Notes under the pieces: generated by a model | What the model saw: the letters and a program-made list of their open reading frames with translations, nothing else | Databases searched by the model: none | Told to the model about the DNA's origin: nothing | NCBI GenBank assembly: GCA_000934665.2 | Contig: JYFJ02002148.1 | Coordinates: forward strand, 1 to 62,567 | From: Catajapyx aquilonaris | Lineage: Eukaryota | Reading direction: 5' to 3' | Length of the DNA: 62,567 nucleotides | Translations under genes and position numbers: made by a program | Shown here: positions 9,755 to 34,522 of the stretch, in pieces | How positions within the stretch are numbered: the first letter of the stretch is position 1 | Layout: every line of letters starts with the position of its first letter

Positions 9755-11719
9755 TCATTCATGTTTTCCATCTTCGGGAAGGACAGCAGCAGGACAACCT
9801 AAACATTTCTTACGGAAGGGAATAATTTTACATGTCACACTACGCGACTTGCCAACATATTGATGGTAAAGTTCTCCCAAGAAGACAATCAACCCAACAA
9901 TGCTTCCAGTCAAGAGAATCAGGAAGGGACCTTCCACATGATCCCAGGTGAGCCGGACATTTTCATCTTCAAGTTCGTACCAATTGTGGAATATTTTTTC
10001 TTTGGCAGCAGAAATCAACAGACGATGCTCTTCAATACTCAGCCGAAGGTTCTCCAGACCAATGCTGTTGAAGACGTGCATCCAGTGGTCAATGTTCTCA
10101 GCCAAGATGTTGTTCTTCAGAACAATCAGTGAGGTGTGGACGATGGCCAGTGTGTCTGAGGATGTGAAGGTCTCAGCATTCCGGTATACTCGGGCGTAAT
10201 ATGCGACATCCTTCAAGACAGCATCAGACTCGAGTATCACAACATCGTCTGTCAGGATGTCTTCATGGCGCATCTCTATCCCGCTCACGACACGGATTTT
10301 ATCCAGAAAGTAGGCGTATGTATCACGGAATTCGCTCGCTGCTTCTTCCATGAACTCTTTTAGTGCTGGCGACGTTTCTATGGAGAAACTTGACTGAGTC
10401 AGTTCTTCAATGTTTTTGGGTATTTTTTCCACGGGAGGAAAAATCATGATGTCGTACAGCTTGCTTTCGTAACAAGTGCAAAATATCATGCAGAAATATA
10501 TCCAAAACGCGAGAAACATTCTGCATGAAGGAGATGTTGGTGAAGGAGGGTGTTGATCGACAATGTATCTGGCCATGAATTTAAATATCTCCAGAACAGA
10601 ATTAAAAGGAGAAACCATTCCATGTCGGTTGTGAAACTTGGAAATAAATGACACGCATCCAACTGCAAGCAAAAATGATGCAAAGAAAAAGGACCACGAT
10701 CCAATAGTGTAAGGCAACAAAAGAATTAAAGGTGTTATTATAGGGTGAGGCTTACGTGCAATGAAAGTGAATCTGTATGCATCATGAGGAGTGGCACATT
10801 CAAACACTTTGTAAATCAGGTCCAGCACTGGAACCTTTGGTACGAAGGTCAGTTTGCCGGATATAAATTCTTCCATCAGTTCGAGGCTTTTGCTCATATC
10901 AGAAATTATGGCGTCGACATCTATATACTTCATCTCCCAGTGGAAATTCATTCCTTTGCCCAAGAAGCACATGTGGTAGTCACTTTTGAATATGCTGCAC
11001 GCACTGTCGCTCATATTCCACAAGTAAACACCTTCCAGACGTTTTCCATGTAGGTCTTTTGCATAGTCTTTGAACAAACTGTTCTCAGACACTGATTCGA
11101 TCTGTGGTTCTCCTTGGTCGCAGAAGAAGCACGCCGAGTGTGCCTTGAGAGCACCGTTGGCTCCTCCTGTGCTCAGCGACACCTTGTACTTGAGCAGCGA
11201 GGCCGGTTTGTCCAGCATGAAATCCGGATGAGTCGAGTCCCGTATCCAGAACACGAACCGGTCCTTTGTCTTCCTCACTCCGAGCATCCCTTCGTCCGGG
11301 TCCAAAATGATGTCCATCATGTCCTCGTAGGTGTCCTGGCATGTCGCAACCATGTGCACCAGACACTTGGATGCGCGGTATGGCTCTCTGAACACGGCCG
11401 CATTGTCTCTAGATGTCGGTTGGCAATCCCAGGTGCTCTGAGAGCTTGTCCTGATGATCACGGGTCGTCCAGCAGATGACATGTTGGACAGGAGTGTGTC
11501 CATACTCTGAGGGATGGGTCCGTTCCAGTCGTGGGTGATGGCCAGTGGACACTCCATGTCCATGACCAGGTCATGTCCAAGAATATAATTGACAAACTGA
11601 GGGATCCGCTTGGCAGCAGCATTTTCAGGTTTTAAAGTCGCAAGACCCGATGCAATGCTGACAATGGAGAAAAGAACCACTGCTCTCATCAATACCATTT
11701 TGAATTCAATCCATCGCAT
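9755..11719 (-). CDS. Divergent ionotropic receptor IR-1 (intronless; A-type leader, X-type body)
   Basis: 654-aa ORF, likely start M at 11698. Signal peptide, M1 (LLLPYTIGSWSFFFASFLLAVG), pore segment (RYIVDQ), M3 (RMFLAFWIYFCMIFCTCYESKL) and M4 (LTWDHVEGPFLILLTG..FLGE) give iGluR/IR topology. Confidence 0.9.
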   Translation of the reverse strand: MRWIEFKMVLMRAVVLFSIVSIASGLATLKPENAAAKRIPQFVNYILGHDLVMDMECPLAITHDWNGPIPQSMDTLLSNMSSAGRPVIIRTSSQSTWDCQPTSRDNAAVFREPYRASKCLVHMVATCQDTYEDMMDIILDPDEGMLGVRKTKDRFVFWIRDSTHPDFMLDKPASLLKYKVSLSTGGANGALKAHSACFFCDQGEPQIESVSENSLFKDYAKDLHGKRLEGVYLWNMSDSACSIFKSDYHMCFLGKGMNFHWEMKYIDVDAIISDMSKSLELMEEFISGKLTFVPKVPVLDLIYKVFECATPHDAYRFTFIARKPHPIITPLILLLPYTIGSWSFFFASFLLAVGCVSFISKFHNRHGMVSPFNSVLEIFKFMARYIVDQHPPSPTSPSCRMFLAFWIYFCMIFCTCYESKLYDIMIFPPVEKIPKNIEELTQSSFSIETSPALKEFMEEAASEFRDTYAYFLDKIRVVSGIEMRHEDILTDDVVILESDAVLKDVAYYARVYRNAETFTSSDTLAIVHTSLIVLKNNILAENIDHWMHVFNSIGLENLRLSIEEHRLLISAAKEKIFHNWYELEDENVRLTWDHVEGPFLILLTGSIVGLIVFLGELYHQYVGKSRSVTCKIIPFRKKCLGCPAAVLPEDGKHE

Positions 11720-11995
11720 CGGTTGTACGACCGTCTCTTCCTACACCATCCGTAAAACTGTACAGTTGTGTTAGTTTCGATCCGAAAATCGCCCAAGAGA
11801 ATTGTTAATTACTGAACTCCCGTCAACAATTCTGAGTAAACCTTACCGGGAGGAAACAAAGGTAACCTACATGATCAAACGACTCTCGCACAAGGTCTCA
11901 TCGATTGAATCCTTGGAAATGAATCGTTACTTATTAGCACCATGGATTATTCCAGGTGTCGAGTGCAGAGTTACGCAATGGCTAGAACCAGTTAT

Positions 11996-13903
11996 CTAAG
12001 TGTAACATTTCAGGTCACGGCTTCGTCCCTTGGGAAAACTTGTCATACACGGTTTTAGAGCACATAACAGTTCTCCCAAGAAGGCAATCAGAGAAGTTAT
12101 GCTTCCAGTCAAGAGAATCAGGAATGGACCTTCCACATGATCCCAGGTGAAACGGACATGATCATCTTCAAGTTCATACCAACTGTTGCGCAATTTCTTC
12201 TTGGTAGTCATTATTAAGCGACGATATTCCTGCCTGCTCCGGCGAAGGTTCTCCAGACCAATGCCATTGAATACATGCGTCCAGTGGTCAATGTTCTCTG
12301 CATAGATGCTGTCCTTCAGGACAATCAGTGAGCTGTGGATGAGAGCCAGTGTGTCGGAGGAAATGAAGGTCTCACCATTGCGGAAGAGTGTGGCGTAATA
12401 GGCGACATCATTCAAGACCTCGTCGGACTCGAAGATTACGACGTCAGCTGTCAGGATGTCATCGTAGTTCCTTTCGACATAGCCTGGCAGGACACGTACT
12501 TTGGACAGAAAATCGGAGTACATGTCTCGGAACTCCTTGCCTGCTTCTTCTAGGAACATTTTCACTACTCGCGTTGTTTCTATGGAGAAACTTGAATGAG
12601 TCAGCTCTTCAATGTCCCTAGGTATTTTTTCAACTGGAGGAAAAATCAGGACATTGAAGAGTTTGCTTTTGTAGCAAGTGCAAAATATTATACAGAAATA
12701 TATCCAGAACGCGAGAAACATTCTGTAGGAAGGAGATGTGGGTGAGGGAGGGTCTTGCTCGACAATGTATTTCGCCAGATATTTAAAGATTTGTAGAACA
12801 GATTTAAAGGGAGTGAACATTCCATGCCTCTTGTGAAACTTGGCAATAAATGCGAAAACTCCAACTGCAAGCAAAAATGATGCGAAGAAGAAGGACCACG
12901 ATCCAATAGTGTAAGGCAATGCCAAAATTAAAGGTGTTATTACCGGACATGGCTTACGAGCAATGAAAGTGAATCTCCATACATCATGAGGTGTGGCACA
13001 TTCAAACAGTCGGTATATCAGGTCCAGCACAGGGGCCTTTGGCAGGAAAGCCAATTTTCCGGTTCTGAAACCTTCCATCAGTTCGAGGGCACTCCCAATA
13101 TCGGAAAGGATTGCATTGAAATCGACCTTCGTGATACGCCAATGGAAATTCATCACTTTACCCAAGAAACAGATGTGATTATCTAATGTGTTCAAGCTGC
13201 TGCATTCTTCGTCGCTACTATACCACATGTACACACCATCCAGACGTTTTCCATGTAAATCATTTGCATTATCTCTGAACATGGCTGAGCCAGACACTGA
13301 TTCGATCTGTGGTTCTCCTTGGTCGCAGAAGAAACACACCGAGTGTGCCTTGAGAGCACCGTTGGCTCCTCCTGTACTCAGCGACACCTTGTACTTGAGC
13401 TGCGAGGCCGGTTTGTCCATCATGAAATCCGGATGAGTCGAGTCCCGTATCCAGAACACGAACCGGTCCTTTGTCTTCCTGACTCCGAGCATCCCTTCGT
13501 CCGGGTCCGAAATGATGTCCATCATGTCCTCGTAGGTGTCCTGGCATGTCACAACCATGTGCACCAGACACTTGGATGCGCGGTATGGTTCTCTGAACAC
13601 GGCCGCATTGTCTCTAGATGTCGGTTGGCAATCCCAGGTGCTCTGAGAACTTGTCCTGATGATCAGGGGTCGTCCAGCAGATGACATGTTGGACAGGAGT
13701 GTGTCCAGACTGTGAGGGATGGGTCCGGCCCAGTCGTGGGTGACAGCCAGTGGACACTCCATGTCCATGACCAGGGCATGTCCAAGAATCTTGTTGACAA
13801 ACCGAGGGATTAGATCGCCTCCATGATTTTGTTGTGTCAGAGTCACTAGACCCGATGCAATGTTGGCAAAGGAGAAAACAACCACTGCTAACATCAACAC
13901 CAT
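11996..13903 (-). CDS. Divergent ionotropic receptor IR-2 (intronless; A leader, X body)
   Basis: The ORF track starts at a GTG (13972). The ATG homologous to the paralogs' start (MVLML) is at 13903. Same IR motifs as IR-1. Confidence 0.9.
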   Translation of the reverse strand: MVLMLAVVVFSFANIASGLVTLTQQNHGGDLIPRFVNKILGHALVMDMECPLAVTHDWAGPIPHSLDTLLSNMSSAGRPLIIRTSSQSTWDCQPTSRDNAAVFREPYRASKCLVHMVVTCQDTYEDMMDIISDPDEGMLGVRKTKDRFVFWIRDSTHPDFMMDKPASQLKYKVSLSTGGANGALKAHSVCFFCDQGEPQIESVSGSAMFRDNANDLHGKRLDGVYMWYSSDEECSSLNTLDNHICFLGKVMNFHWRITKVDFNAILSDIGSALELMEGFRTGKLAFLPKAPVLDLIYRLFECATPHDVWRFTFIARKPCPVITPLILALPYTIGSWSFFFASFLLAVGVFAFIAKFHKRHGMFTPFKSVLQIFKYLAKYIVEQDPPSPTSPSYRMFLAFWIYFCIIFCTCYKSKLFNVLIFPPVEKIPRDIEELTHSSFSIETTRVVKMFLEEAGKEFRDMYSDFLSKVRVLPGYVERNYDDILTADVVIFESDEVLNDVAYYATLFRNGETFISSDTLALIHSSLIVLKDSIYAENIDHWTHVFNGIGLENLRRSRQEYRRLIMTTKKKLRNSWYELEDDHVRFTWDHVEGPFLILLTGSITSLIAFLGELLCALKPCMTSFPKGRSRDLKCYT

Positions 13904-15177: not shown

Positions 15178-15179
<2 letters not shown>

Positions 15180-15269
<90 letters not shown>
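15180..15269. repeat. (AAT)n microsatellite, ~30 units
   Basis: Pure AAT run. Confidence 0.98.
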
Positions 15270-15270
<1 letters not shown>

Positions 15271-15559: not shown

Positions 15560-15765
15560 CTTCAATCGATGGGACCTTGAGCAAGAGTCTTTTGATCACA
15601 CGTGTAGGAGTGACTAACATGTGTCTCAAAGTTTTCAAGAGAATTGTTTACCGACTCGGTAGTAATTAACAATTCTCCCTCACCCACGTCCCTTTCATAC
15701 AGAATGTTTCTATCTGGCGTCATGGATGTATTTTTGTATAATTTTTTGCACATGCTACAAGAGCG
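15560..15765 (+). pseudogene. IR relic: A-type upstream region fused to an M3 fragment
   Basis: 15560-15676 matches the upstream of IR-5 and IR-3 (atcgatgggacct..agaattgtt..aacaattct). It is joined directly to PSPTSLSYRMFL..WMYFCIIFCTCYKS coding sequence, which is frameshifted. Confidence 0.8.
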
Positions 15766-15769
15766 TCTC

Positions 15770-16010: not shown

Positions 16011-17049
16011 ACCCAAGTCAGGTCAAAGTGTTCACTACTACTCCTACTGCTCAACACGGAACATTGCTCTCCAACAACAGAGTGTTTACACACAATGTTG
16101 TATATCGCGAGGTTTTATGAAAACTTTTCTCATGTCCGATTCAGGAAGTGTACAGTAGGCTATATGTCCATTGATTCAATGCCGCTCAATTTTTCAACCT
16201 CGTATTACGACGACCAGCTATACGCTATTTCTTACTTGTCACTCCGCGAGCTCTCTCATTCAATTTTTTCATTAATTGTCTTCCTCATTGCAGGTTTTGC
16301 CAAATTTTGGCTACGGGTGCACTAGTTATAAGAGAGTTATGTGACCTGGGGAAATCTAAACTATTTACCTACAGTACAACCTGTTGAGAAGTACGAAACA
16401 TAATTTACAATCTCATCTAACATGTAGGCCTGCTAATTAAAAAAATATCTCTTGCAGATTTTCCTCAAGCCAATTTATTCGTTGGCGGAATACGATACAA
16501 AAAAGTCAAAAATTAATATATTAAAACGGACGATTTGTCACATGTAGGTTTGCACAAAGACCATTCACCCTTCTTCAAGACGGTATATTATGCACTTGAC
16601 GACTTACTAATCTCCTCTGAGATTGAATTGAGACAGCAAATCTGTGATTTAGCACCGAGTTATCCCTGGTGTGATAAGCGATTTCGACATACGCGTGACG
16701 CTATAGTTTACGAAAGATGTCATAAAACAGCAGCCTGCACAAAGATGTCGTTTCGACATTCCTTATCCGGGTTATCTGGGAATTTAAAAATTACTATCAG
16801 ATATATCTTTCTAAGTGAACTGGATCAAAAACCGAGGAAATAGACTCATCAGTCATAATCTTGCATATTGCGGATACAGTTTTATTATCAGAAGCGATTA
16901 TAAAGTGAAACTTTCCTCAGACAGATATAAACGTGCTTGAGGAAAGTCCCTGTACTGCAAGTAGTAATATATATGCTTATCACTATGAGGTTCACTATAT
17001 AAAATGTGTTACGTGTGTTTCACAGTGAGCAGTTTCCATCACTTTCACA

Positions 17050-17757
17050 ATGACGCAGGTGGTAGCAACAATTGTCTTGACTTTATTGGTGTCATCAGTG
17101 TCATTAGGAGCATCTCCACCTCATCCTTCATCGCATGTGAAACCAGCAGCTCTATCTGAAAGTAAGACTAATATTGTTACCTTCATACAGCGCTATTCAG
17201 GGTGGTCCAAAACGGTTACAAAATCCGGTGAGGCTTAATTTCAAAAGATTTTCTGATTCATTGCGATGTATTTCAGAGGCTTGCAAGGTGCCCTTTCAGA
17301 ACATTGGTTCAGGATGCTACTATTTTAGTGGTTCCAACCTGAATAAAAACTGGTGGCAATCTGCTGAGTACTGCAGAATCATTGGAGGAAACCTGCTGAC
17401 CATAGACGATCCTGTTGAAAACCAGGACATTCAGGACTATTTGCTGAGAAGTAAGCTTTTTACAACATTACAGAACAATATATTGTGCCCAAGTTCCGGC
17501 TACAATATTAGTGTTAACTTTCCATAGATTACCCTCAAGGCCACTTCTTCATCGGTGGGTACGACCTTGGTCACGAAGGACTTTGGTATTGGCAGGCAAC
17601 ACTAAAGCCTATTGGATTCACTGACTGGTATCCTGGACAACCAGACAATGCTAGAGGGATTGAAAATTGCTTGGTTCTGGAGACGCAGCATGGATTTCGC
17701 TGGAACGACAGGCCCTGCACCATGACCAGCAACTTTGCATTCATATGTGAAGCTTAG
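17050..17757 (+). CDS. Secreted single-domain C-type lectin 1 (QPD, galactose-type motif), 3 exons
   Basis: Exons 17050-17161, 17277-17450 and 17528-17757 with phase-1 GT-AG introns. Signal peptide, then C..PF..IG..CYYF, W..AEYC..IGGNL, FFIGG.D..EG.W.W, W.PGQPDN..ENC, WNDRPC and FICE. Confidence 0.93.
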
Positions 17758-18039
17758 CTATATGTTGCGTTGTCTATTAACGCTAACTTTAATATCTGTG
17801 GTCGGAAGCTTTGTTGTTAGCGGCATACGTAGCATGCTGGAAAATGTACTATTGAATAAAAGGCACATTCATTTTCAAGGTAATATTCAATTTCAGAGAT
17901 TATTATTAAACGTGGCGTAATATTATGTCGTCTGGGACTTTCAAATTCCGGTTGACATGAGTAGACCAATAACTTATAATGCAGGTTGATCCAATGCACG
18001 TACGTTGATCCAATGCACATCTCCACACTAGTCACCTAA

Positions 18040-18180
18040 TTCACTTGGGATCACGTTGAAGCTTCATTTGTGATACTTATAGGTGGCAGTGGCAGCTTAC
18101 CATTATTGCATTGTTGGGAGATTTGATTTGGTGGTGTGTGAAGCGGCAAAGAAAAGAGAGGTTTCCCAGCAAGAAGTGAA
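18040..18180 (+). pseudogene. IR M4 / C-terminal relic
   Basis: ttcacttgggatcacgttgaagcttcatttgtgata translates as FTWDHVEASFVILIGG. Duplicated at 25487-25623. Confidence 0.75.
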
Positions 18181-18300
18181 AGAACACTGTTAGCGGCATA
18201 TAAAGAATTCCCTCTATAGGAAGTGCGGAGGTTCTAGGAACAAGTTGTTGACATTAATTTTGAAGTCCCTTTGTCCCAGTAGGTACGTGTAAACAGAATC

Positions 18301-18443
18301 CAAGGGGGTAATCACTCGACTGAAAAGTGTACACTGGAGTACCAAATTCAAGGAGTACCACGGAGTAATAGAGTGAGGTGCCTGAGGAGTACTAGGGAGT
18401 ACACCCAGGTGTACACCGGAGTACCGAAGTGATTACCCCCTTG
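18301..18443. mobile_element. 143-bp MITE (CA..TG ends, 8-bp TSD; hAT- or P-like), family M1
   Basis: TIR CAAGGGGGTAATCACT and TSD ACAGAATC (18293-18300, 18444-18451). The empty site is present in the duplicate at ~25734. Confidence 0.92.
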
Positions 18444-18608
18444 ACAGAATCTATCTGTTATTACCTCTCACACACCAAAGCTTCCTCTTGACTTTTGACT
18501 TTGACTGTGAATAATACTGGACGGTACAGTTAACAAACACGCCACTCGGGTGTCAGAGAACCAAGCGCCCATCCTGAGTATCAAAGTTAAGGAAACGAAT
18601 TAGAAACC

Positions 18609-20410
18609 ATGTTGTTTCCTGCATTTGCTGTGTACCTGTGTGTACCTGTGTGCTGTGTGGAGGATATACCTTATTTCGTCAGCAATATCTTGAAACACAA
18701 TCAACTGTGTCAGAGTTACGGCGACCCGACCATAAAGGCCCCGCGCCACACACAATCAACTGGTGAACAAAGAATGTCCACTGTTGATTACCCACGATTC
18801 GGACGGACCCAATCCTCGAGTCTGGACACACTCCTGTCCAACATGTCATCTGCTGGACGACCCCTGGTCATCAGGACAAGTTCTCAGAGCACCTGGGATT
18901 GCCACCCGACATCTAGAGACAATGCGGCCGTGTTCAGAGAGCCATACCGCGCATCCAAGTGTCTGGTGCACATGGTTGTGACATGCCAGGACACCTACGA
19001 GGACATGATGGACATGATTTTGGACCCGGACGAAGGGATTCTCGGAGTGAGGAAGACAAAGGACCGGTTCGTGTTCTGGATACGGGACTCGACTCATCCG
19101 GATTTCATGCTGGACAAACCGGCCTCGCAGCTCAAGCACAAGGTGTCTGTGAGCACAGGAGGAGACGGTGCTCTCAAGGCACACTCGGTGTGCTTCTTCT
19201 GCGACCAAGGAGAACCACAGATCGAATCAGTGTCTGTGATGGACACTTTATTCAAAGACTATGCAAAGGACCTTCATGGGAAGCGTCTGGAAGGTGTTTA
19301 CTTGTGGAGTACGAACGACAGCGCGTGCAGCATTTACGAAAATGAATACCACATGTGCTTCTTGGGCAAGGCAATGAATTTCCAGTGGCTCATGAGATAC
19401 GTCAATTTCGACTACATTCTTGCAGACACTGGCAGAAGCCTTGAACTGATGGAAGATTTCAGATCTGGACAATTGTCCTTCATACCAAAGGCCCCTGTCC
19501 TGGACCTGATATACCAACTGTTTGATTGTACCACACCCCATGATGTGTTAAGGTTCACTTTCATTGCGCGTAAGCCACGTACTGTAATAACACCAATGAT
19601 TTTTATATTGCCTTACACAGTTGGAGCATGGTCATTTTACTGCTCATTTTTTCTGCTTGCAGTTGGATGTATGTCAATTATTGGCAAGTTTCGCGCAAGA
19701 CAGGAAATGTTTTCTCCCTTCAGTTCTGTTCTAAGCATCTGTAAATACATGGGTAGATGCATTGTCGAGCCTCCCTCACCCACATCCCTTTCATACTGAA
19801 TGTTTCTGGTGTAATGGATGTATTTTTGTATAATTTTTTGCACATGCTACAAGAACAGGCTCTACTATATTTTGATTTCTCCTCCTGTTGAAAAAATACC
19901 TCGAGATATTGAAGAACTGAGGCATTCAAGTTTCTCCATAGCAAAGTCACAGGTTGTCAATGTGTTTCTAGAAGGTGCAGTCAAAGAGTTACGTGGTATG
20001 TACGCATACCTCTTGGCCAAAATAAGCGTTATAAAGTGGATAGAGTGGCATTACACTCCCATTCTGACCGATGACGTTGTGATCTTAGAGTCTCACCCAG
20101 TCTTGAAGGATGTCGCCTTTTACGCCCCTCTACGTATATTCAAATGCTGTGACCTTCACATCCTCCGATATTCGGGCCATTGTCCCCACTTCATTGATAG
20201 TTCTCAAGGACAGCATCTATGCAGAGAACTTGGACCATTGGATGCATGTATTCAGCAGCATCGGTTTGGATCATCTTCGGCTGAGTATTCACGAGAATGA
20301 ACTCGCGATATATACTGCAGATGAGAAAAGGCGCCAGAACTGGTATGCACTGGATGCGGAACCGGTGAAATTCTCCCGGGATCATGTCGAAGACCCCTTC
20401 CTGATTCACT
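18609..20410 (+). pseudogene. IR pseudogene (B-type leader, X-type body)
   Basis: 55-nt net insertion near the 5' end plus a 1-nt deletion. AGA>TGA stop at 19797-19799, a second stop shortly after, and a frameshift near 20130. Truncated in M4 at ~20410 by unrelated sequence starting TTAAGGCGAG. Confidence 0.88.
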
Positions 20411-20998
20411 TAAGGCGAGACCCTACTAAAAAAAATATATTTGTTGATACTGAACGTATCAAGGCGTCATGTTAGTACCATGTTGAAGATACTTTAAAAA
20501 TATCATAAAACAAATGTTAATTAGTTATGTTCAGTTGTTATGATTTTATGGCCTTATTAATTATTACCTGGTCATCACCTATTAATCCTGCTGTTTGCTG
20601 GTGTATGAATATATTTCTCTTTGAAATTGTACGTGACTGGATGAGATCTGCAGATCTGCATATATTTTTATGAAATGCGGAAAGATATTACAGTATGACT
20701 CGTCCTATAGTAATTGCATAACCTTGCACTCGACACGTGGCATATTCCTGTGCCAATTAATGATTCAAATTCCTGAAATGCAGTCGATGAGACCTTGTGC
20801 GACAGTCGTTTGATCATGTAGGCTACCTTTGTATCCTGTACTGCATGTGTCTCAAAGGTTTACTCAGAATTGTTGATTGGGAATGCAGTAATTAACAATT
20901 CTCTTGGGCGATTTCAGTATCGAAACAGACACAACTGCACACTTTGACGGTAGGTGTAGGAAGGGACAGTCGGAAAATACAACTAAAGCGATGGAAAA

Positions 20999-22873
20999 AT
21001 GGTGTTGACGAGAGCAGTGGTTGTTTTCTCCATTGTCATCAGCACATATGGTCTGGTTACTTTGACACCTGAAAATGCAACAGACAAACAGATCCATCAG
21101 TTTGTCAATAATATTCTTGGACATGCCCTGGTCATGGACATGGAGTGTCCACTGGCTGTCACCCACGACTCGGACGGACCAATCCCTCAGAGTCTGGACA
21201 CACTCCTGTCCAACATGTCATCTGCTGGACGACCCGTGATCATCAGGACAAGCTCTCAGAGCACCTGGGATTGCCACCCGACATCTAGAGACAATGCGGC
21301 CGTGTTCAGAGAGCCATACCGCGCATCCAAGTGGCTGGTGCACATGGTTGTGACATGCCAGGACACCTACGAGGACATGATGGACATCATTTTGGACCCG
21401 GACGAAGGGATGCTCGGAGTGAGGAAGACAAAGGACCGGTTCGTGTTCTGGATACGGGACTCGACTCATCCGGATTTCATGCTGGACAAACCGGCCTCGC
21501 AGTTCAAGTACAAGGTGTCGGTCAGTACAGGAGGAGCCAACGGTGCTCTCAAGGCACACTCGGTGTGCTTCTTCTGCGACCAAGGCGAACCACAGATCGA
21601 ATCTGTGTCTGATGACACCTTCTTCAAAGACTATGCAAAGGACCTTCATGGGAAGAGTCTGGAAAGTGTTTACATATGGAGTATGAGTGACGAAGAGTGC
21701 AGTATCTTGAAAATGGATTACCACGCATGTTTTTTGGGCAAGGCAATGAATTTCCAGTGGAATATGAAATACATCGATTTCGACGCAATTCTTTCCGATA
21801 TAAGCAGTGCCCTCGATCTGGTGGAAGATTTCAGAACCGGAAGATTGTCCTTCATACCAAAGGCTCCATTGTTGGACCTGATATACCAACTGTTTGACTG
21901 CGCTACACCCCATGATGCCTTCAGATTTACCTTCATTGCACGTAAGCCACGTCCCGTAATAACACCAGTGATTGTGATAATGCCTTACACAGTTGGAGCA
22001 TGGTCATTCTACTGCTCATCTTTCCTGCTTGCTGTTGCATACGTGTCATTTCTTGCCAAATTTCACACAAGACAGGGAATGTTTTCTCCCTTCAGTTCTG
22101 TTCTAAGCATCTGTAAATACATGGCGAGATACATTGTCGAGCAATGCCCTCCCTCACCAACATCTCCTTCATACAGAATGTTTCTGGTGTTGTGGATGTA
22201 TTTTTGCATAATATTCTGCACTTGTTACAAGAACAAACTCTTCGACATCATGGTTTTTCCTCCAGTGGAAAAAATACCCAGAGACATTGAAGAACTGAGT
22301 CACTCAAGTTTCTCCATAGAAACGTCGCCAGTAGTGAAAACGTTTTTAGACACACTAGACGAAGATTTCCACAAGAGTCACCCAAATCTTTTGGCAAAAA
22401 CACGCGAAAGAAGCAAGATCGAATCCCGCTACCTTGACCTCATGACAGATGACGTGGTGATCTTCGAGTCTGACGCATGCTTGGAAAATATCGCCTATTT
22501 CGCTGATGCATATACCAATGACGAGACCTTCATATCCTCAGACACACTGGCCATCGTCCACACTTCACTGATTGTTTTTAAGGACAACATCTTGGCTGTG
22601 AACATTGACCACTGGACACATGTCTTCATCAGCCTTGGCCTGGAGAAGCTTCGACGGAGCATTGACCACAATCGCATCTCTATGGCTGCTGCCCATAGTA
22701 AACGCCTCAACAATTGGTACGATTTAGATGATCATATCCGATTCACCTGGGATCATGTGGAAGGTCCCTTCCTGATTCTATTGGCTGGAAGCACAGCTGC
22801 GTTGGTCGTGTTGCTGGGAGAACTGTGCTGTGTACATGATCTTAAACCGTGTGTGACACGTTTGTATATATGA
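20999..22873 (+). CDS. Divergent ionotropic receptor IR-3 (A leader, X body)
   Basis: 624-aa intact ORF with signal peptide and M1, pore, M3 and M4 IR motifs. Its upstream region is an inverted homolog of the IR-1 upstream region. Confidence 0.9.
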   Translation: MVLTRAVVVFSIVISTYGLVTLTPENATDKQIHQFVNNILGHALVMDMECPLAVTHDSDGPIPQSLDTLLSNMSSAGRPVIIRTSSQSTWDCHPTSRDNAAVFREPYRASKWLVHMVVTCQDTYEDMMDIILDPDEGMLGVRKTKDRFVFWIRDSTHPDFMLDKPASQFKYKVSVSTGGANGALKAHSVCFFCDQGEPQIESVSDDTFFKDYAKDLHGKSLESVYIWSMSDEECSILKMDYHACFLGKAMNFQWNMKYIDFDAILSDISSALDLVEDFRTGRLSFIPKAPLLDLIYQLFDCATPHDAFRFTFIARKPRPVITPVIVIMPYTVGAWSFYCSSFLLAVAYVSFLAKFHTRQGMFSPFSSVLSICKYMARYIVEQCPPSPTSPSYRMFLVLWMYFCIIFCTCYKNKLFDIMVFPPVEKIPRDIEELSHSSFSIETSPVVKTFLDTLDEDFHKSHPNLLAKTRERSKIESRYLDLMTDDVVIFESDACLENIAYFADAYTNDETFISSDTLAIVHTSLIVFKDNILAVNIDHWTHVFISLGLEKLRRSIDHNRISMAAAHSKRLNNWYDLDDHIRFTWDHVEGPFLILLAGSTAALVVLLGELCCVHDLKPCVTRLYI

Positions 22874-24335
22874 AGACGTGTATTCGTAACCGTGTATGAA
22901 ATGGTCAATCGAACTTGGAAAACTGACACGGTGTGCCGGTATGTAGCCTGTTCATATTAGTTGCACATAAGGATTTATTACTGCTTTTTCGTCACAGGAA
23001 CTTGCCAAAATGAAATGAGATCCTTCAACAGAGGTCACAGTGTTTACTGTACATGTCAGTAGTTCCTTTGTTCTGTCCGTTTTTTGTCATTACTATTATT
23101 CACACATCATAGACTTGCTTAGAGTCCTGATCCCCTTTTTTGATTGATGCAAAACAATCTAGTGTTAACTTTTCTGTGCTCTGGAAATCACGTGATAACA
23201 TCAGGCCACGTATAGAGAGTTGCCTGTTGCGGCACAGCAAAGGTACAGGCACCATCGCAGTTGATTATAATAGCTGAATGCACTATTCAAAGTTATTACT
23301 CTTAAGCATCAATATGAGTATTCATTTTGACTTTGATTGTCCTGTATTTGAGATCTTATATTGTATTGTATACTAGGAGTGTGACTTCAACACTCTCTCC
23401 TGTCCTATTGTTGCACCCATGCATACGAAACAAATAGTTTTCTGTTCCATATAATTATGTAAGTGATATGCTTCGAATAGTTTGAAATATAATAAATACA
23501 GATAGATGAGACATGACTAGGAATCGAACTTTTTTTCTTTTGCAAATAATATATTACAATCTATTCAACCCGATAAGTCGTCCCCACATCCCTCACAGAG
23601 TTCTCTCGGATCCAAGTTGTGGTTGTGGATCCGAGTTGCCTCCATATATGACTAACCATGTGTCCAACACTGTACGAACCATCATTTACAATCTCATCTA
23701 ACATGTAGACCTACTAATTAAAAAAATATCGCTCGCAGATTTTCCTCAAGCCAATTTATTCGTTGGCGGAATATTATACAAAAAAGGCAAAAATTAATAT
23801 ATAAAAACGGACGATTTGTTACATATAGGTTTGCAAAAAGACCATTCACCCTTCTTCAAGACTGTATATGCACTTGACCTCCTCTGAGATTAAATTGGGA
23901 CAGCAAATCTGTGATTTAGCACCGAGTTATCCCTGGTGTGATAAGCGATTTCGACATACGCGTGACGCTAGTTTACGAAAGATGTCGTAAAACAGCAGCC
24001 TGCACAAAGATGTCGTTTCGACATTCCTTATCCGGGTTATCTGGGAATTAAAAAATTACTATCAGATATATCTTTCAAGTGAACTGGATCAAAAACTGAG
24101 GAAATATGGAATAAGAGTGAAGTCATAATCTTACATATTGCGGATATAATTTTATTATTAGATGCGATTAGAAAGTGTTACTTTCATTAGACAGATATAA
24201 ACGTGCTTGAGGAAAATCACTGCACTTTTTTATTGTACTCTGGTACCGATTGCGCATATGCTTATCACTGTGACGTTCACAATAAAATGTGTTACGTGTG
24301 TTTCAGAGTGAGCATCAGTTTCCATCACTTTCACA

Positions 24336-25333
24336 ATGACGCAGGTGGTAGCAACAATTGTCGTGACTTTATTGGCGTCATCAGTGTCATCAGGAGCATC
24401 TCCACCTCATCCTTCACCTCATGAGAAACCTGCAGCTCTCTCTGAAAGTAAGCCTAATATTGTTACTTTTATACAGTTATACAGGGTGGTCCAAAACGGT
24501 CACAAAATCAGGAACTTATATATAAAAGTGAGGCTTAATTTCGAAGGATTTTCTGATTCATTGCGATTCATTTCAGAGGCCTGCAAGGTGCCCTTTCAGA
24601 ACATTGGTTCAGGATGCTACTTTTTTGGTGGTTACAACTTCAAGAAAAACTGGTGGCAATCTGCTGAGTACTGCAGGATAATTGGAGGAAACCTGATGAC
24701 CATAAACGATCCGGTTGAAAACCAGGACATTCAGGACTATTTGCAGAGAAGTAAGCTTTTAACAACATTACCGAACAATATGTTGTCAGGGAGCATATGT
24801 ACTACATAAAAAGCGCAAACTTCTGTCGGCGCCTTTGATGTTCGCGTCTCTCTGTTTATGGCGTTGCCAAGGCCATTTTGAAGTGTGTGGAACGCCAACG
24901 AGGCATAAATAGGGTACAGGCATTTTTTTTTGCATGTGCCCTATTTATGCCTCGTTGGCGTTGCCCACACTTCAAAATGGCCGCCAGCCTTGGCAACGCC
25001 CCAAAACAGAGAGACGCCGAAATCGAATGTTTGCGCCTCTTATGTAGTATATGCTCCCTGATATTGTGCCCAAGTTCCGGCTACAATATTAGTGTTAACT
25101 TTACAGATTACCCTCGAGGCCACTTCTTCATCGGTGGATACGACCTTGGTCACGAAGGACTTTGGTATTGGCAGGCAACACTTAAGCCTATTGAATTCAC
25201 TGACTGGTATCCTGGACAACCAGACAATGATCAAGGGATTGAAAATTGCTTGGCTCTGGAGACGCAGTTTGGATTTCGCTGGAACGACAGACCCTGCACC
25301 AGGAGCAACTTTGCATTCATTTGCGAAGCTTAG
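24336..25333 (+). CDS. Secreted C-type lectin 2 (QPD), 3 exons
   Basis: Exons 24336-24447, 24577-24750 and 25107-25333. Paralog of lectin 1, with a MITE in intron 2. Confidence 0.93.
24787..25060. mobile_element. Fold-back MITE (same family as 7521-7951) in lectin-2 intron 2
   Basis: TIR CAGGGAGCATAT. 7-bp TSD ATGTTGT/ATATTGT (24780-24786, 25061-25067). The empty site is in lectin-1 intron 2 (~17480). CA..TG ends with a 7-8 bp TSD fit the P superfamily. Confidence 0.88.
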
Positions 25334-25486
25334 CTATACTTTGCGTTGTCCAATCAGAAGCATAGGATACATACAATAAGGTATACATCCTCACAAGGTA
25401 TACGTCCTCACAAGGTATACGTCCTCACAAGGCTGTGCCATGTAGGAACTTTTACCCAATGCACAGCTCCACACTAGTCACCTAAT

Positions 25487-25623
25487 TCACTTGGGATCAT
25501 GTTGAAGCTTCATTTCTGATGCTTATGGGTGGCAGATTACCAGGATTTATTGAATTATTGTTGGGAGATTTGATTTGCTGGTGTGTGAAGCGGCAAAGAG
25601 AAGAGAAGTTTCCCAAGAAGTGA
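25487..25623 (+). pseudogene. IR M4 / C-terminal relic
   Basis: Translates as FTWDHVEASFLMLMGGRLPGFIELLLGDLICWCVKRQREEKFPKK*. Confidence 0.8.
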
Positions 25624-25884
25624 AAAAACACTGTTAGCAGCATATAAAGAATTCCCTCTATAGGAAGTGCGAAGGTTCTTAGGAACAAGTTGTTGACATT
25701 AATTTTGAAGTCCCTTTGTCCCAGTACGTGTAAACAGAATCGATCTGTTATTACCTCTCACACACCAAAGCTTCATTTGACTGTGAATAATACTGGACGG
25801 TACAGTTAACAAACACACCGCTCGGGTGTCAGACAACCAAGCACCCATCCTGAGTATCAAAGTTAAGGAAACGAATTAGAAACC

Positions 25885-27702
25885 ATGTTGTTTCCTGCAT
25901 TTGCTGTGTACCTGTGTGTACCTGTGTGCTGTGTGGAGCATATACCTAATTTCATCAACAATATATTGAAACACAATCAACTGATGAGCAAGGAATGTCC
26001 ACTGGCCATCACCCACGACTCGGATGGACCCATCCCTCAGAGTCTGGACACACTCCTGTCCAACATGTCATCTGCTGGACGACCCGTGATCATCAGGACA
26101 AGTTCTCAGAGCACCTGGGATTGCCAGCCGACATCTAGAGACAATGCGGCCGTGTTCAGAGAGCCATACCGCGCATCCAAGTGTTTGGTGCACATGGTTG
26201 TGACATGCCAGGACACCTACGAGGACATGATGGACATCATTTTGGACCCGGACGAAGGGATGCTCGGAGTGAGGAAGACAAAGGACCGGTTCGTGTTCTG
26301 GATACGGGACTCGACTCATCCGGATTTCATGCTGGACAAACCGGCCTCGCAGCTCAAGTACAAGGTGTCTGTGAGCACAGGAGGAGACAACGGTGCTCTC
26401 AAGGCACACTCGGTGTGCTTCTTCTGCGACCAAGGAGAACCACAGATCGAATCAGTGTCTGTGGACAGTGTGTTCAAAGACTATGCAATGGACCTACATG
26501 GGAAGCGTCTCAGAGGTGTTTACATGTGGAATGGTAGTGACGTAGGATGTGCCACTCACTCAGTTTCTGATCACTTGTGTTTCTTGGGAGACGCGCTTAA
26601 TTTTGGTTGGGCGGTTGACAAAGTGGATTTCGATGCCATTCTTTCAGATGTAACCAGAAGCCTTGATTTGATGAGGGATTTTCAGACAGGAAAAGTCGAC
26701 TTTATTCCCAAAGCTCCTGTCCTTGACCTGATCTACCAACTGTTTGATTGCGCAACACCTCACAAAGCGTATAGATTCACCTTCCTTGCACGACAAGCTC
26801 GATCAAAACTTACACCTTTTATTATAGTAATGCCTTTTACACTGGCTTCCTGGTGCATACTCCTCATGTCCTATTTGGTGGCAGTAATATCCTTTGCAAT
26901 CGTGTCCCAGTTTCACAAACGGCAGGGAATTGTAACTCCTTTCAAGTCTGTCTTGCACATTATGAAGCACCTGGGACGGATTATTGTTGAACAGTATCCT
27001 CCATCCCCAACCTCTTCGTCTCTCATGATGTTTCTAACACTGTGGAGTTACTTCTGCCTGATTATCAGTACCGGATACAAGAGCAAGCTGTACGACATTG
27101 TAACGTTCCCACCTCTGGAGAAAGTGCCTAAAAATCTACCCGAGTTGACGAAATCGTCCTTCTCCATCATAATGTCTCGTGTGGTCAACATGTTCATTAC
27201 AGACGCCAACAAAGATTTTCGCGACACTTACGACACTCTTCTTTCCAAAATGAAAGTCGTGCCTTCAGTCTACGACTACTACAATGACATCCAGACAGAA
27301 AATATTGTCATCTTGGAATCCGATTCTGTGTTGAAAGGTGTCGCCTTCTATTCCAACGCCTACAGTAACTTCATGACCTTCATCTTCCCAGACGACTTGG
27401 CCTTCGTCCATGCTTCTCTGATAGTCCTGAAGGACAACATTTTTGCGGAGAACATCAACCATTGGATGCACATCTTCAACAGCATTGGACTGGCATTGTA
27501 TGGAGACAGCATAAGCAACGCTCACTACTGGTTAAAGGTAGAATCGGAGAGATTAAGACACGGGATCAAATCAGGTGATGAAATTGTCCGATTCACTTGG
27601 GATCACGTTGAAGGTCAATTTCTGATCCTTTTTGGTGGATGCTTATCCGGATTTATAGCATTGGTGTGGGAGTTAATTTGTTGTCGTATTCGACAAAAAT
27701 AA
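25885..27702 (+). CDS. Divergent ionotropic receptor IR-4 (B leader, Y body)
   Basis: 605-aa intact ORF. Leader MLFPAFAVYLCVPVCC, body LRGVYMWNGSDVGCATH..., and IR TM motifs. Confidence 0.9.
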   Translation: MLFPAFAVYLCVPVCCVEHIPNFINNILKHNQLMSKECPLAITHDSDGPIPQSLDTLLSNMSSAGRPVIIRTSSQSTWDCQPTSRDNAAVFREPYRASKCLVHMVVTCQDTYEDMMDIILDPDEGMLGVRKTKDRFVFWIRDSTHPDFMLDKPASQLKYKVSVSTGGDNGALKAHSVCFFCDQGEPQIESVSVDSVFKDYAMDLHGKRLRGVYMWNGSDVGCATHSVSDHLCFLGDALNFGWAVDKVDFDAILSDVTRSLDLMRDFQTGKVDFIPKAPVLDLIYQLFDCATPHKAYRFTFLARQARSKLTPFIIVMPFTLASWCILLMSYLVAVISFAIVSQFHKRQGIVTPFKSVLHIMKHLGRIIVEQYPPSPTSSSLMMFLTLWSYFCLIISTGYKSKLYDIVTFPPLEKVPKNLPELTKSSFSIIMSRVVNMFITDANKDFRDTYDTLLSKMKVVPSVYDYYNDIQTENIVILESDSVLKGVAFYSNAYSNFMTFIFPDDLAFVHASLIVLKDNIFAENINHWMHIFNSIGLALYGDSISNAHYWLKVESERLRHGIKSGDEIVRFTWDHVEGQFLILFGGCLSGFIALVWELICCRIRQK

Positions 27703-30696: not shown

Positions 30697-30773
30697 TTAC
30701 AGATAGTTTGCATGATCGTTATACTTTTCTTCATCCCCTTCACCAATGTATACAAATTATATGCTACAGGCCG

Positions 30774-30918
30774 CAAGGGGTTAACCACTCGAGAGTAAAA
30801 TGTACACTGGAGTACCAAATTAATTCAAGGAGTACCAAGGAGTACCCAAGAGTAAGGAGTACCTAGGAGTAACACTGCAGGTGCTGTACACCTAAGTACC
30901 GAAGTGGTTAACTCCTTG
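30774..30918. mobile_element. MITE family M1 copy
   Basis: TIR CAAGGGGTTAACCACT and TSD ACAGGCCG/ACAAGCCG. Confidence 0.88.
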
Positions 30919-31004
30919 ACAAGCCGACAACTAATTTATTGCAATACAGCCTATTAAGTTGTGTTATAAGTTCAAAAATATATTGATGAACGTTAACATG
31001 AACT

Positions 31005-31395: not shown

Positions 31396-31794
31396 TTTAT
31401 AAGAGATAGTCAATATTATGCTTCTACACAATGCGAGATATTTACTTCACATGGTAAGTTCAGTTACTTTGAAGAAAAAAGATATTAATATGTGAAACAT
31501 GTTTATTACCAATGACAAACATTGGGCTTATAAAGTATTCCCTTTTGACAAAGCGTGGACAAGGTTTTGACATACTTATAGTCACTTTGTCCCAGTATAC
31601 GTGTATATGCTACAACGTACTCTATGTATGTAATTAACTGTTACACCTCAAAGCTTCCTTTGACTGTTGAGCATTCTGGACGGTACAGTGTTAACAAACA
31701 CGATACTCGAAAATAACAATTCATTCGAATGTCAAACAACGGGTGTGACAGAGAGTGAAATATAAGGATTCATAAAATTATTATATAAGGAACC

Positions 31795-32330
31795 ATGTGG
31801 TTTTCTGCACTTGCTGTTTACGCCTTAGCCAACAGTACAAGTAATGTATATCTCCAACAAGTCGTAGGGGAGAAAATACCTAATTTCATTTACAATATCT
31901 TGTAAGTGCCGGTGAACACGGAATGTCCACTGGCCATCACCCACGACACGGATAGACCAATCCCTCAGAGTCTGGACACACTCCTGTCCAGCATGTCTTG
32001 TGCTGGACGATCCCTGATAATCAGGACAAGTTCTCAGAGCACTTGGAATTGCCAGCCGCGTATCTATAGAGACTTTCGCAGAAGGTCCCATCGATTGTTT
32101 TCGACTGACGCTTCCTGTAAAATAGTCGTTATCTAGCACCTGGATTTTTATGACTCTCTGAACACTTCCGCATTGTGTCTATTGGCTCTCTGAACACTTC
32201 CTCATTGTCTTGATTGGCTCTCTGAAAACTTCCGCATTGTCTCTATTGGCTCTCTGAAAACTTCCGCATTGTCACTTCCGCACTGTTGCTATATATAGAC
32301 AATGCGGAAGTATTCAGAGAGTCATAAAAA
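31795..32330 (+). pseudogene. 5'-only IR fragment (B-type promoter and leader plus the first part of the shared block)
   Basis: MWFSALAVY..IPNFIYNIL* then VNTECPLAITHD..SLDTLLSSMS..SSQSTWNCQP. It is broken at ~32070 and resumes briefly at 32296-32326. Confidence 0.82.
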
Positions 32331-32403
32331 TGCAGGTGGCAGATAACGACTCTTTTACAGGAAGTCAGTCGAAAACAATCGATGGGACCTTGTGAGAAAG
32401 TCT
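32071..32403. repeat. Inverted repeat (~110-bp arms) enclosing a ~32-bp tandem repeat
   Basis: 32071-~32181 is the reverse complement of 32296-32403. The unit (t)tggctctctgaa(c/a)acttccgcattgtctcta occurs about four times. Confidence 0.85.
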
Positions 32404-32605
32404 TTTGATCTATGTGGCACGTGTATAGGAGTGATTGTATGCGCCACAAAGGTTTCAAGAGAATTGTTAACGGACTCTGCTGAAAAATATTAACAATTCT
32501 GTCGGACAATTTCCGGCTCGTAAGAAGACCCAACTGCACACTTCCGAGCAAGGTGTAGGAAGAGACAGTCGCGGAAGTACAACAGAAGAGATCCAACAAT
32601 TCAAA

Positions 32606-34522
32606 ATGGAGTTGATAAGGGCAGTGATTGTTTTCTCCTGTGCCAGCATTGCATCAGGGCTAGTTACTTTCACAAGTGAAAAGGCTACAGATGAACAAAT
32701 CACTAAGTTTGTCAACAATATTCTCCAAAGTGACCTGGTCATGAATACTGAATGTCCACTGGCTGTCACCCACGACTCGGACAGCCCCATCCCTCATAGT
32801 CTGGACACACTCCTGTCCAACATGTCCTTTGCTGGACGACCCCTGATCATCAGGACAAGTTCTCAGAGCACCTGGGATTGCCAGCCGACATCAAGAGACA
32901 ATGCGGCCGTGTTCAGAGAGCCATACCGCGCATCCAAGTGTCTGGTCCACATGGTTGTGACATGCCAGGACACCTACAAGGGCATGGTGGACAGCATTTT
33001 GGACCCAGACGAAGGGATGCTCGGAGTGAGGAAGACAAAGGACCGGTTCGTGTTCTGGATACGGGACTCGACTCATCCGGATTTCATGCTGGACAAACCG
33101 GCCTCGCAGCTCAAGTACAAGGTGTCTGTGAGCACAGGAGGAGACGGGGCTATCAAGGCACACTCGGTGTGCTTCTTCTGCGACCAAGGAGAACAACAGG
33201 TCGAATCAGTGTCTGAGGACACTTTGTTCAAAGACTATGCAATGGACCTACATGGGAAGCGTCTCAGAAGTGTTTACATGTGGAATGGTAGTGATGTAGG
33301 ATGTGCCACTCATTCAGTTGCTTCCATGCACATGTGTTTCTTGGGAGACGCCCTTAATTTTGGTTGGGCGGTGGATGAAGTCGATTTAGATGCCATTCTT
33401 TCCGATATGAGCAGAAGCATGGATTTGATGCTTGATTTTCAGACAGGAAAAATCGACTTCATTGAGAAAGCTCCTGTCCTGGACCTGACATACCAACTGT
33501 TTGATTGCGCAACACCTCACACTGCGTACAGGTTCACCTTCCTTGCACGACAAGCTCGATCAATACTTACACCTTTTATTATAGTAATGCCTTTTACAAT
33601 GGTTTCTTGGTGCTTATTCCTCACGTCCTATTTGATAGCAGTAATATTCTTTGCAATCTTGTCCAAGTTTCACAAACGGCAGGGAATGCCAACTCATTTC
33701 AAGTCTGTCTTGGATATTATCAAGCACCTGGGAAGAATCATTTTGGAGCAATATCCTCCTTCCCCAACCTCTTCGTCTATAATGATGTTTCTAGCACTGT
33801 GGAGTTACTTTTGCTTGAATATCAGCACCGGATACAAGAGCAAGCTATTTGACATTCTAACCTTCCCTCCTCTGGAGAATGTCCCTAAAAACATACCTGA
33901 GTTGACGAAATCGTCCTTCTCCATCATAACGTCGCGTCTGGTCAACACGTTCATTATAGACGCCAACGACGATTTTCGAGACACTTACGACACTCTTATT
34001 TCCAAAATTAGTGTTGTGTCTGAAGTCCGCGACTACTCCTATGCTATCCTGACAAAGGACATTGTCATCTTCGAATCCGATTCTGACTTGAAAGGTGTCG
34101 CCTACTATTCCAACGCCTACGGTAACTTCAAGACCTTCATCTTCTCTGACGACTTGGCCTTCGTCCATGCTTCTCTGATAGTCCTGAAGGACAACATTTT
34201 TGCAGAGAATATGAACCATTGGATGCTCATCTTCAACAGCATTGGACTGGCATTGTATGACGACAGCGTAAGGAACGATCACTACTGGTTAAACGTAGAA
34301 TCGGCGAGATTAAGACACGGGTTTACATCAGGTGATGAACTTGTGATATTCACTTGGGCGCACGTTGAAGGTTCCTTTTTGATCCTTTTTGGTGGAAGCT
34401 TAGCAGGATTGATTGCATTGTTGTGGGAATTGATTTGTATGAAGCGACAACAGAAGAAGATAGTTAGCCAAGAAGTGCGGAATACTAATGATGAATATCA
34501 GATAGGAACATATTTACCTTAA
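32606..34522 (+). CDS. Divergent ionotropic receptor IR-5 (A leader, Y body)
   Basis: 638-aa intact ORF. Leader MELIRAVIVFSCASIASGLVT, with a body closely similar to IR-4. Confidence 0.9.
   Translation: MELIRAVIVFSCASIASGLVTFTSEKATDEQITKFVNNILQSDLVMNTECPLAVTHDSDSPIPHSLDTLLSNMSFAGRPLIIRTSSQSTWDCQPTSRDNAAVFREPYRASKCLVHMVVTCQDTYKGMVDSILDPDEGMLGVRKTKDRFVFWIRDSTHPDFMLDKPASQLKYKVSVSTGGDGAIKAHSVCFFCDQGEQQVESVSEDTLFKDYAMDLHGKRLRSVYMWNGSDVGCATHSVASMHMCFLGDALNFGWAVDEVDLDAILSDMSRSMDLMLDFQTGKIDFIEKAPVLDLTYQLFDCATPHTAYRFTFLARQARSILTPFIIVMPFTMVSWCLFLTSYLIAVIFFAILSKFHKRQGMPTHFKSVLDIIKHLGRIILEQYPPSPTSSSIMMFLALWSYFCLNISTGYKSKLFDILTFPPLENVPKNIPELTKSSFSIITSRLVNTFIIDANDDFRDTYDTLISKISVVSEVRDYSYAILTKDIVIFESDSDLKGVAYYSNAYGNFKTFIFSDDLAFVHASLIVLKDNIFAENMNHWMLIFNSIGLALYDDSVRNDHYWLNVESARLRHGFTSGDELVIFTWAHVEGSFLILFGGSLAGLIALLWELICMKRQQKKIVSQEVRNTNDEYQIGTYLP

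Follow-up and report, generated by a model that had tools for sequence, protein, structure and literature searches.

What keeps one part of a receptor gene nearly identical among paralogs whose remaining sequence has diverged widely? This question is raised by a cluster of six ionotropic receptor (IR)-like genes in Catajapyx aquilonaris, located on contig JYFJ02002148.1 of GenBank assembly GCA_000934665.2 (positions 1 to 62,567; this whole stretch of 62,567 nucleotides is referred to as the window). The genes, labeled A to F, are paralogous, consist of single exons, and occupy the region from 9.7 to 34.5 kb in both orientations, with A and B on the minus strand and C to F on the plus strand. 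Each carries in its 5′ part a block of approximately 468 nt. We consider it quite probable that this block, which appears to encode a half amino-terminal domain (half-ATD), has been kept near-identical by interlocus gene conversion and/or non-allelic homologous recombination (NAHR) while the rest of the genes and their flanks diverged.

A near-identical block in six diverged genes

A BLASTN search of the window with the gene D block recovered six copies with 92.6%–96.4% identity to it, in agreement with an earlier reading of this DNA from its letters alone (hereafter the sequence-only reading), as well as a 146-nt partial copy with 87.7% identity (Table 1). Block edges reported for the genes are alignment-based, and BLASTN match ends differ slightly from them. 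Block identity was 93.5%–97.0% in all 15 gene pairs, corresponding to 14–30 differences per pair. When the six genes were aligned together and identity was averaged over pairs in 60-nt windows, it was 0.94–0.99 inside the block, compared with 0.47–0.58 upstream and 0.49–0.79 downstream, and variable columns made up 55 of 464 in the block versus 949 of 1476 outside it (Fisher p = 3.3e-94). A recount confirmed exactly the 11 differences in 420 nt previously counted by eye between 21191–21610 (gene D) and 26041–26460 (gene E), and downstream of the block, where about half of the residues had been said to differ, D and E have 199 of 392 residues in common. The claim that all IR paralogs carry the block is shown for the six genes in the window, six of six, and applies to these.

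The edges of the block had been described as sharp, which is accurate for the 3′ edge, where identity falls within ~10 nt after the motif GTGTCTG and an indel-rich stretch follows, and not for the 5′ edge, which is graded across ~50 nt. Change-point scans located cross-clade edges at positions 21142–21192 and 21609–21659 in gene D, and the edges agreed within ~50 nt in the 13 pairs with a tract confined to the block region. For these six genes, the earlier description of homogenization as limited to the N-terminal domain and operating between genes of either orientation holds. Variable-site density and the change-point scans took the place of a Sawyer-type test on condensed polymorphic sites, which was uninformative for the block since homogenization of all copies removes the very sites that it counts.

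Synonymous sites are conserved in the block as well, as the sequence-only reading had proposed. Synonymous divergence (dS, estimated by the Nei-Gojobori method, NG86) was 0.044–0.13 in the block and 0.23–2.5 in the body, that is, the coding sequence downstream of the block (0.23 for E–F, 0.61–0.65 among A, B, and D, and 1.7–2.5 between body clades), so that block dS, far from resembling body dS, was 3- to 40-fold lower. The ratio of non-synonymous to synonymous divergence (dN/dS) was alike in both parts, at 0.16–0.57 in the block and 0.14–0.47 in the body. Synonymous and non-synonymous divergence are thus scaled down together, which indicates recent shared ancestry of the tract rather than protein-level constraint, and the earlier argument that protein-level selection is an insufficient cause stands: dS collapses in the block while dN/dS stays similar. 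The difference is also evident in the youngest pair, E–F, with 6 synonymous differences over 92.5 sites in the block versus 50.5 over 256 in the body (p = 0.003). Gene C is a pseudogene, and its block, which has acquired 1-nt and 3-nt deletions in the alignment, is nonetheless homogenized like those of the intact genes (93.8%–96.8% identity). The proportion of G or C at third codon positions (GC3) was 0.665–0.697 in the block versus 0.495–0.519 in the body (p = 2e-5 to 6e-4 per gene), bearing out the suspected enrichment in G/C-ending codons. This raised GC3 suggests that GC-biased conversion is plausible.

Trees built from the three parts of the genes conflict rather than being congruent. The 5′ region gave a maximum-likelihood tree of length 2.38 and the body one of 1.31, and the block tree, at 0.153, was 8.6 times shorter than that of the body. 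In approximately unbiased (AU) tests, body data rejected the block topology (p ~1e-41) and the 5′ topology (p ~1e-47), block data rejected the body topology (p = 0.0115), and 5′-region data rejected the block topology (p = 0.0005). Body clades were well supported (bootstrap 100 for E and F, 98 for C and D). Within the block there were 13 informative sites, eight of them biallelic, and 16 of the 28 pairs of biallelic sites failed the four-gamete test. The star-like shape of the block tree reflects changes found in a single copy (5 in A, 7 in B, 11 in C, 6 in D, 2 in E, and 16 in F), with private changes in 44 ungapped columns.

Re-assortment of 5′ modules and bodies

The sequences on the two sides of the block fall into different groupings. 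Over the 400 nt upstream, type I comprises A, B, D, and F, with 72%–85% identity between them, and type II comprises C and E, with 88%, and the two types are not alignable to each other; C–E identity upstream is 0.92 over 1132 aligned nt. On the downstream side, alpha bodies (A, B, C, and D; 73%–83% identity) can be told from beta bodies (E and F; 88%–90%), with cross-type pairs at 65%–70%. Two kinds of 5′ module, each comprising a promoter region and signal peptide, are thus found with two kinds of body, and all four combinations are present within 25 kb, so at least one exchange must have had its junction in or at the block.

The limits of homology agree with the position of such a junction. 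E–F homology starts at the 5′ block edge (25993/32750), and C–E homology extends from ~2.3 kb upstream through the block, ending at or just past its 3′ edge. Between gene F and each of A, B, and D, dS is 0.38–0.66 in the type I pre-block sequence and 1.7–1.8 in the body, and gene F is therefore best described as a type I 5′ end grafted onto a beta body. The apparent role of the block as the breakpoint of these swaps is new relative to the sequence-only reading.

Approximately 0.7 kb upstream of the gene F block lies the relic of a displaced 5′ module, and after it come scraps of the block in inverted orientation (32149–32245) within an inverted repeat (32070–32182 / 32293–32403). Duplicated segments of 2.3 kb precede genes C and E, and within them are open reading frame (ORF) pieces matching Pfam Lectin_C at 17141–17527 (+) and 24312–25333 (+), with a best E-value of 2.5e-6; since lectin-like pieces occur in both segments, the duplication unit comprised a lectin-like gene together with an IR 5′ end. 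Short pieces resembling the IR C-terminal end were also noted in these segments, at 25486–25599 upstream of E and 18039–18160 upstream of C, and are probably the debris of an older copy.

Table 1. Positions of the IR-like genes, their blocks, and related segments in the window
Feature	Position	Strand	Block by alignment	BLASTN match to D block	Description
Gene A	9755..11698	(-)	11086-11553	11087-11583 (-)	intact, intronless; type I 5′ module, alpha body
Gene B	11996..13903	(-)	13291-13758	13292-13788 (-)	intact; type I 5′ module, alpha body
Gene C	18609..20475 (3′ end approximate)	(+)	18773-19236	18764-19235	pseudogene, chimera; type II 5′ module, alpha body
Gene D	20999..22873	(+)	21144-21611 (residues 50-204)	21114-21610	intact; type I 5′ module, alpha body
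Gene E	25885..27702	(+)	25994-26461	25989-26460	intact; type II 5′ module, beta body
Gene F	32606..34522	(+)	32751-33215	32731-33214	intact, chimera; type I 5′ module, beta body
Relic	31869..32058	(+)		31913-32058	type-II-like pre-block and first ~146 nt of block; 84-89% identical to live blocks
Upstream segment of C	16391..18707	(+)			C-type-lectin-like ORF and type II 5′ module (self-BLAST, Pfam Lectin_C)
Upstream segment of E	23672..25983	(+)			paralog of 16391-18707, 87-92% identity
Remnant of further IR copy	15618..15762	(+)			D-upstream-like piece (20844-20903) abutting D-body-like piece (22149-22232); block deleted

Five of the six genes have intact ORFs of 606–648 codons; in gene C, three-frame translation revealed in-frame stops and frameshifts. 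Family members beyond the six genes, as found by tBLASTn of the window, were fragments only. Pfam PF00060 (Lig_chan) was matched in five of six scanned ORFs (A 38.7, B 30.6, D 28.5, E 21.5, and F 18.0 bits), of which only gene A passed the curated cutoff of 30.8 bits, and the Pfam scan gave no Lig_chan match for the truncated ORF of pseudogene C. The nearest sequence relatives among 1.84 billion representatives had 22%–28% identity at E-values of 5e-15 and weaker, those with names being collembolan proteins with ionotropic glutamate receptor (iGluR) domains, and no IR in the libraries searched exceeded 26% identity. A homologous-protein search with D in a word-indexed library yielded 6483 candidates, none at E ≤ 0.001, and a metagenome scan with the block protein yielded 47 pattern matches, none confirmed. 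The label "IR-like" is accordingly justified by fold and domain and not by close kinship.

Probable gene conversion or recombination, and competing explanations

The block corresponds to a discrete structural unit in the predicted protein. In an AlphaFold2 model of D (mean predicted local distance difference test score, pLDDT, 84.1), an alternating beta/alpha domain with strands at residues 52–202 is followed by a low-confidence linker and then by the ligand-binding domain (LBD), so that the folded domain coincides with residues 50–204 encoded by the block; the description of a constant domain joined to a variable body, made from sequence, fits this model well. Residues 217–618 align to the LBD and transmembrane domain of AMPA/kainate receptor chains with Z 20–22 (8ss7_B: Z 21.2, root-mean-square deviation [rmsd] 6.5, 363 aligned), and the model shows the S1-M1-pore-M3-S2-M4 fold of the iGluR superfamily. 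The ~215 residues ahead of the LBD constitute a short N-terminal region of the kind seen in tuning IRs.

Pfam ANF_receptor had no match at E ≤ 0.1. A domain-only model (D residues 27–217, pLDDT 79.1) was searched against 48,161 representative chains, and its six best matches were all to the lower parts of chains that contain an iGluR ATD, at Z 10.1–11.3: GluD2 first (6lu9_A; Z 11.3, rmsd 3.8, 156 aligned, chain residues 125–406), then GluD1, GluA1, and GluK2/K5 (Z 10.1–11.1). Further down, the ATDs of GluK5, GluK3, and GluN2B (Z 9.6–9.8) were interleaved with GABA-B, mGlu, T1R, NPR, and bacterial LIVBP-type proteins. As predicted, the block would thus encode a discrete alpha/beta domain that most resembles the lower part of an iGluR ATD and hence a half-ATD made up of R2 only. 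The second half of the block can be aligned with distant homologs and has motifs in common with them, which indicates that the family inherited the domain from its ancestor rather than gaining it by insertion. Foldseek matches of the domain model in the pdb set, to KaiC CI and FlaH (template-modeling [TM] score 0.33–0.41, rmsd 7–9), were discounted as a generic alpha/beta resemblance.

Several observations weigh against homogenization of a half-ATD by exchange between paralogs, or limit what can be claimed for it. Block copies differ from each other by 3%–6.5%, so homogenization has been neither very recent nor frequent. Private changes lack a GC-biased sign, with 21 changes from G or C to A or T (S>W) versus 15 in the opposite direction (W>S) at 55.6% GC, and of the GC-biased conversion suggested earlier the raised GC3 was thus found, and a signal in polarized changes was not. 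The 5′-region data did not formally reject the body topology (AU p = 0.116), probably owing to how poorly sequences of type I align with those of type II. Incompatibility within the block concerns eight biallelic sites, and unverified short-read phasing may scramble the assignment of variants to copies, so that from the earlier claim of recurrent gene conversion we retain homogenization by recombination, with "recurrent" depending on few informative sites and on phasing that is unverified. Logan contigs give the majority base at several copy-private sites (for example, 21334, 11346, and 21521/21523) and so do not confirm the variants specific to those copies, and the sets X1–X3 from which contigs were drawn may be the assembly's own sample and hence not independent support. 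Lastly, the ATD assignment depends on a predicted model at Z ~11, and the top Foldseek matches of the domain model were to KaiC CI (TM ~0.38).

It could alternatively be proposed that a small number of unequal crossovers or segmental duplications rebuilt the array and spread the cassette on a single occasion, and that its copies have since decayed independently, with neither continued exchange nor selection for constancy. This appears unlikely, although the star-like tree, with its 44 ungapped private columns versus 13 informative sites, and a block dS of 0.04–0.13, which is not near zero, are both as expected after one episode, and traces of large events survive in the duplicated 2.3-kb segment of C and E, the relic upstream of F, and the block-less remnant (Table 1). 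However, the incompatible site pairs (16 of 28), together with pair-specific tract ends, point to more than one event; in B–D the identity carries on for another ~30 nt on the 5′ side of the block, and C–D has a stretch of its own at alignment columns 1561–1601. Nor is duplication of the whole 5′ end the source of block identity, since pre-block dS among A, B, D, and F is 0.25–0.66.

An explanation without any exchange would be constraint at the nucleotide level, imposed by a second function in DNA or RNA such as an overlapping or antisense ORF, a structured RNA, a small-RNA target, or a regulatory element. Codon positions are indeed about equally conserved (private changes 13:11:20 at positions 1:2:3), and the block contains long open frames of 107 codons in one alternative sense frame and 127–130 codons in one antisense frame. 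Yet runs at least as long arose in 2042 of 5000 (antisense) and 750 of 5000 (sense) synonymous-codon shuffles, and an overlapping ORF was ruled out on these grounds, shuffles matching the open frames in 15%–41% of cases. A structured RNA or known RNA family was likewise ruled out, with zero Rfam matches in the window and a folding z of −0.11 (43 of 100 shuffles fold equally well). Constraint of this kind also leaves unexplained the re-assortment of modules at the block, the conflict between block and body topologies, and the undiminished identity of the block in pseudogene C, and we regard it as improbable.

More improbable still is an artefact of assembly or polishing, in which a collapsed consensus overwrote copies that are truly more different. 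Besides the majority bases noted above, what speaks for it is that X1–X3 Logan contigs break near block edges, ending at 11113, 11537, and 13312 (17–28 nt inside the A and B blocks) and at 21126 (18 nt short of the D block). However, de Bruijn contigs collapse only at truly common 31-mers, and k-mer depth was 158–398 in block contigs versus 20–42 in unique flanks, as expected if exact words are common to many genomic copies; contig depth is not copy number, and further block copies elsewhere in the genome are no more than hinted at by these values. The assembled copies are also non-identical, unlike a pasted consensus, and a contig from X5, which belongs to another study, spans 20995–21231 and crosses the D 5′ edge with zero differences. 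X5 covers 11 of 30 bins, and its contig at 25771–26014, which enters the E block by 21 nt, was not counted as bridging. An artefact would moreover be unable to lift 65%–70% identity to 96%. The converse proposal, that the genes are young duplicates whose true age is shown by the block while all else diverges 20–40 times faster, formally fits the identity profile alone with no specific support and is hardly credible, since it needs saturated synonymous sites (dS 1.7–2.5) and saturated non-coding flanks on either side of 468 nt that stay at a dS of ~0.05–0.13, and leaves unexplained both the four module combinations and the supported body clades.

Homologous exchange between paralogs, the reading that we favor, would keep the 468-nt cassette near-identical as follows. 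Exchange would be confined to the block as the only place where identity is high enough for heteroduplex formation, and the hypervariable, indel-rich linker directly 3′ of it and the saturated region 5′ of it could make this confinement self-reinforcing. The cassette may in turn stay convertible through purifying selection on a common protein surface, which, judging from homology to the insect IR complexes that have been solved, would be where the half-ATD of a tuning subunit touches the co-receptor ATD. Raised GC3 may be a by-product of biased repair. Going further, one may speculate, though we hold it to be rather doubtful, that the cassette serves as a built-in recombination joint, in which identity maintained for docking on a common co-receptor ATD lets 5′ modules and bodies be re-assorted; ligand specificity could then be re-wired to other sensory neurons without a change in assembly.

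Outside the block, C and D show a run of 25 concordant polymorphic sites in their bodies (approximately 19561–19601 in C and 22081–22121 in D; permutation p = 0.0005 per pair, 0.03 global), which may represent a second, small conversion tract.

Known receptor systems and the wider neighborhood

Region-limited gene conversion in receptor clusters is a known kind of process, so the case described here is clear but has precedent, the closest being the clustered protocadherins of teleosts, where regional gene conversion was described in the fugu Pcdh2 subclusters (Yu et al. 2007, PMC1852091). Going by the passages available from that paper, both systems are tandem arrays of cell-surface receptors in which one coding part is homogenized and the recognition part is diverse, and the same argument applies to both, namely that synonymous identity excludes protein-level constraint. 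In fugu Pcdh2, identity is >99% in the homogenized part and ~79% in the recognition part, compared with 93.5%–97.0% in the block here, and GC3 in the homogenized versus other part is 54%–69% versus 38%–45% in fugu, where it was taken as a signature of conversion, and 67%–70% versus 50%–52% here. Homogenization in fugu affects large variable exons toward their 3′ end (EC4-6 onward), and splicing joins a truly shared constant region to them, whereas each IR-like gene encodes its own copy of a 5′-proximal domain. Also unlike the fugu arrays, the IR-like array runs in both orientations, and its tract is bounded on two sides and is, in addition, the junction of 5′-module swaps.

As for IRs themselves, a cryo-electron microscopy structure of the IR8a/IR75b complex includes RproIR75b, a tuning IR with an R2-only half-ATD that contacts the IR8a ATD, and the ATDs of tuning IRs are there described as "often poorly conserved" (bioRxiv 10.64898/2026.09.30.755715, in the portion available). 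Similarly, the ~200-aa N-terminal region of IRs has been described as highly divergent and without detectable ATD homology (Croset et al. 2010, PMC2924276, in the text available). The genes here resemble tuning IRs in having a short N-terminal domain followed by the LBD (S1), channel, S2, and M4, and the match of the D 27–217 model to the lower part of iGluR ATDs (Z 9.6–11.3) is a likeness to the R2-only half-ATD. They are also intronless, as are the "divergent IRs" (PMC2924276, same text). In contrast to the divergent N-terminal region of tuning IRs in these two sources, as far as the available text goes, here no other part of the paralogs is as well conserved.

NAHR and possible gene conversion have been invoked for chemoreceptor arrays (Croset et al. 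2010, PMC2924276; Ngoc et al. 2016, PMC5203786), which, in the passages matched, share with this locus tandem clusters, pseudogenes, and mixed orientations. In these passages NAHR accounts for gene birth and conversion is raised as a possibility, with no domain-restricted cassette or 5′-module re-assortment, and a search of openly accessible literature, limited to listings and matched passages, found no account of a homogenized N-terminal cassette in IR genes. What is new here is that the block corresponds to a half-ATD-like domain in a predicted model and appears to be the junction of module swaps. The locus would be a compact invertebrate chemoreceptor example of domain-restricted concerted evolution in which the tract is one structural domain, and would link interlocus conversion to a structural need for a common assembly surface, by analogy the co-receptor contact. 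Since such a contact has been published for the structural domain that the tract matches, the locus is well suited as a test case. Phylogenies and selection scans of such IR arrays would have to leave out the block, which could itself be used as a probe to count the subfamily genome-wide. The chimeras C and F show that new receptor genes can arise through a swap of regulatory 5′ modules at the cassette.

Elsewhere in the window, two paralogous multi-pass membrane ORFs, at 2–859 (-) and 3324–4478 (-), are 95% identical over 840 nt and had no Pfam matches. Based on language-model features, 22 of their 30 named Atlas matches were to 7tm_7 gustatory-receptor clusters, mostly from arthropods (score 0.96), and with gustatory-receptor-like ORFs beside IR-like genes the window therefore looks like a mixed chemoreceptor neighborhood. 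A dispersed repeat of ~145 nt was found at 18301–18446, 30774–30921, 43463–43557, and 55544–55660, and also around 24850–25060, placing it just upstream of C and near the relic. Its read-contig depth ranged from thousands to 26,000, compared with ~30 elsewhere, with many loose ends at 18443 and 25060. The repeat is probably a short mobile element of very high copy number that borders the duplicated segments. Minisatellite-like tandem arrays occupy 47489–48915, 53645–54442, and 62055–62520, and the array at 53.7–54.3 kb is open in several frames, with repetitive 'IIDTATVIDTSY' translations.

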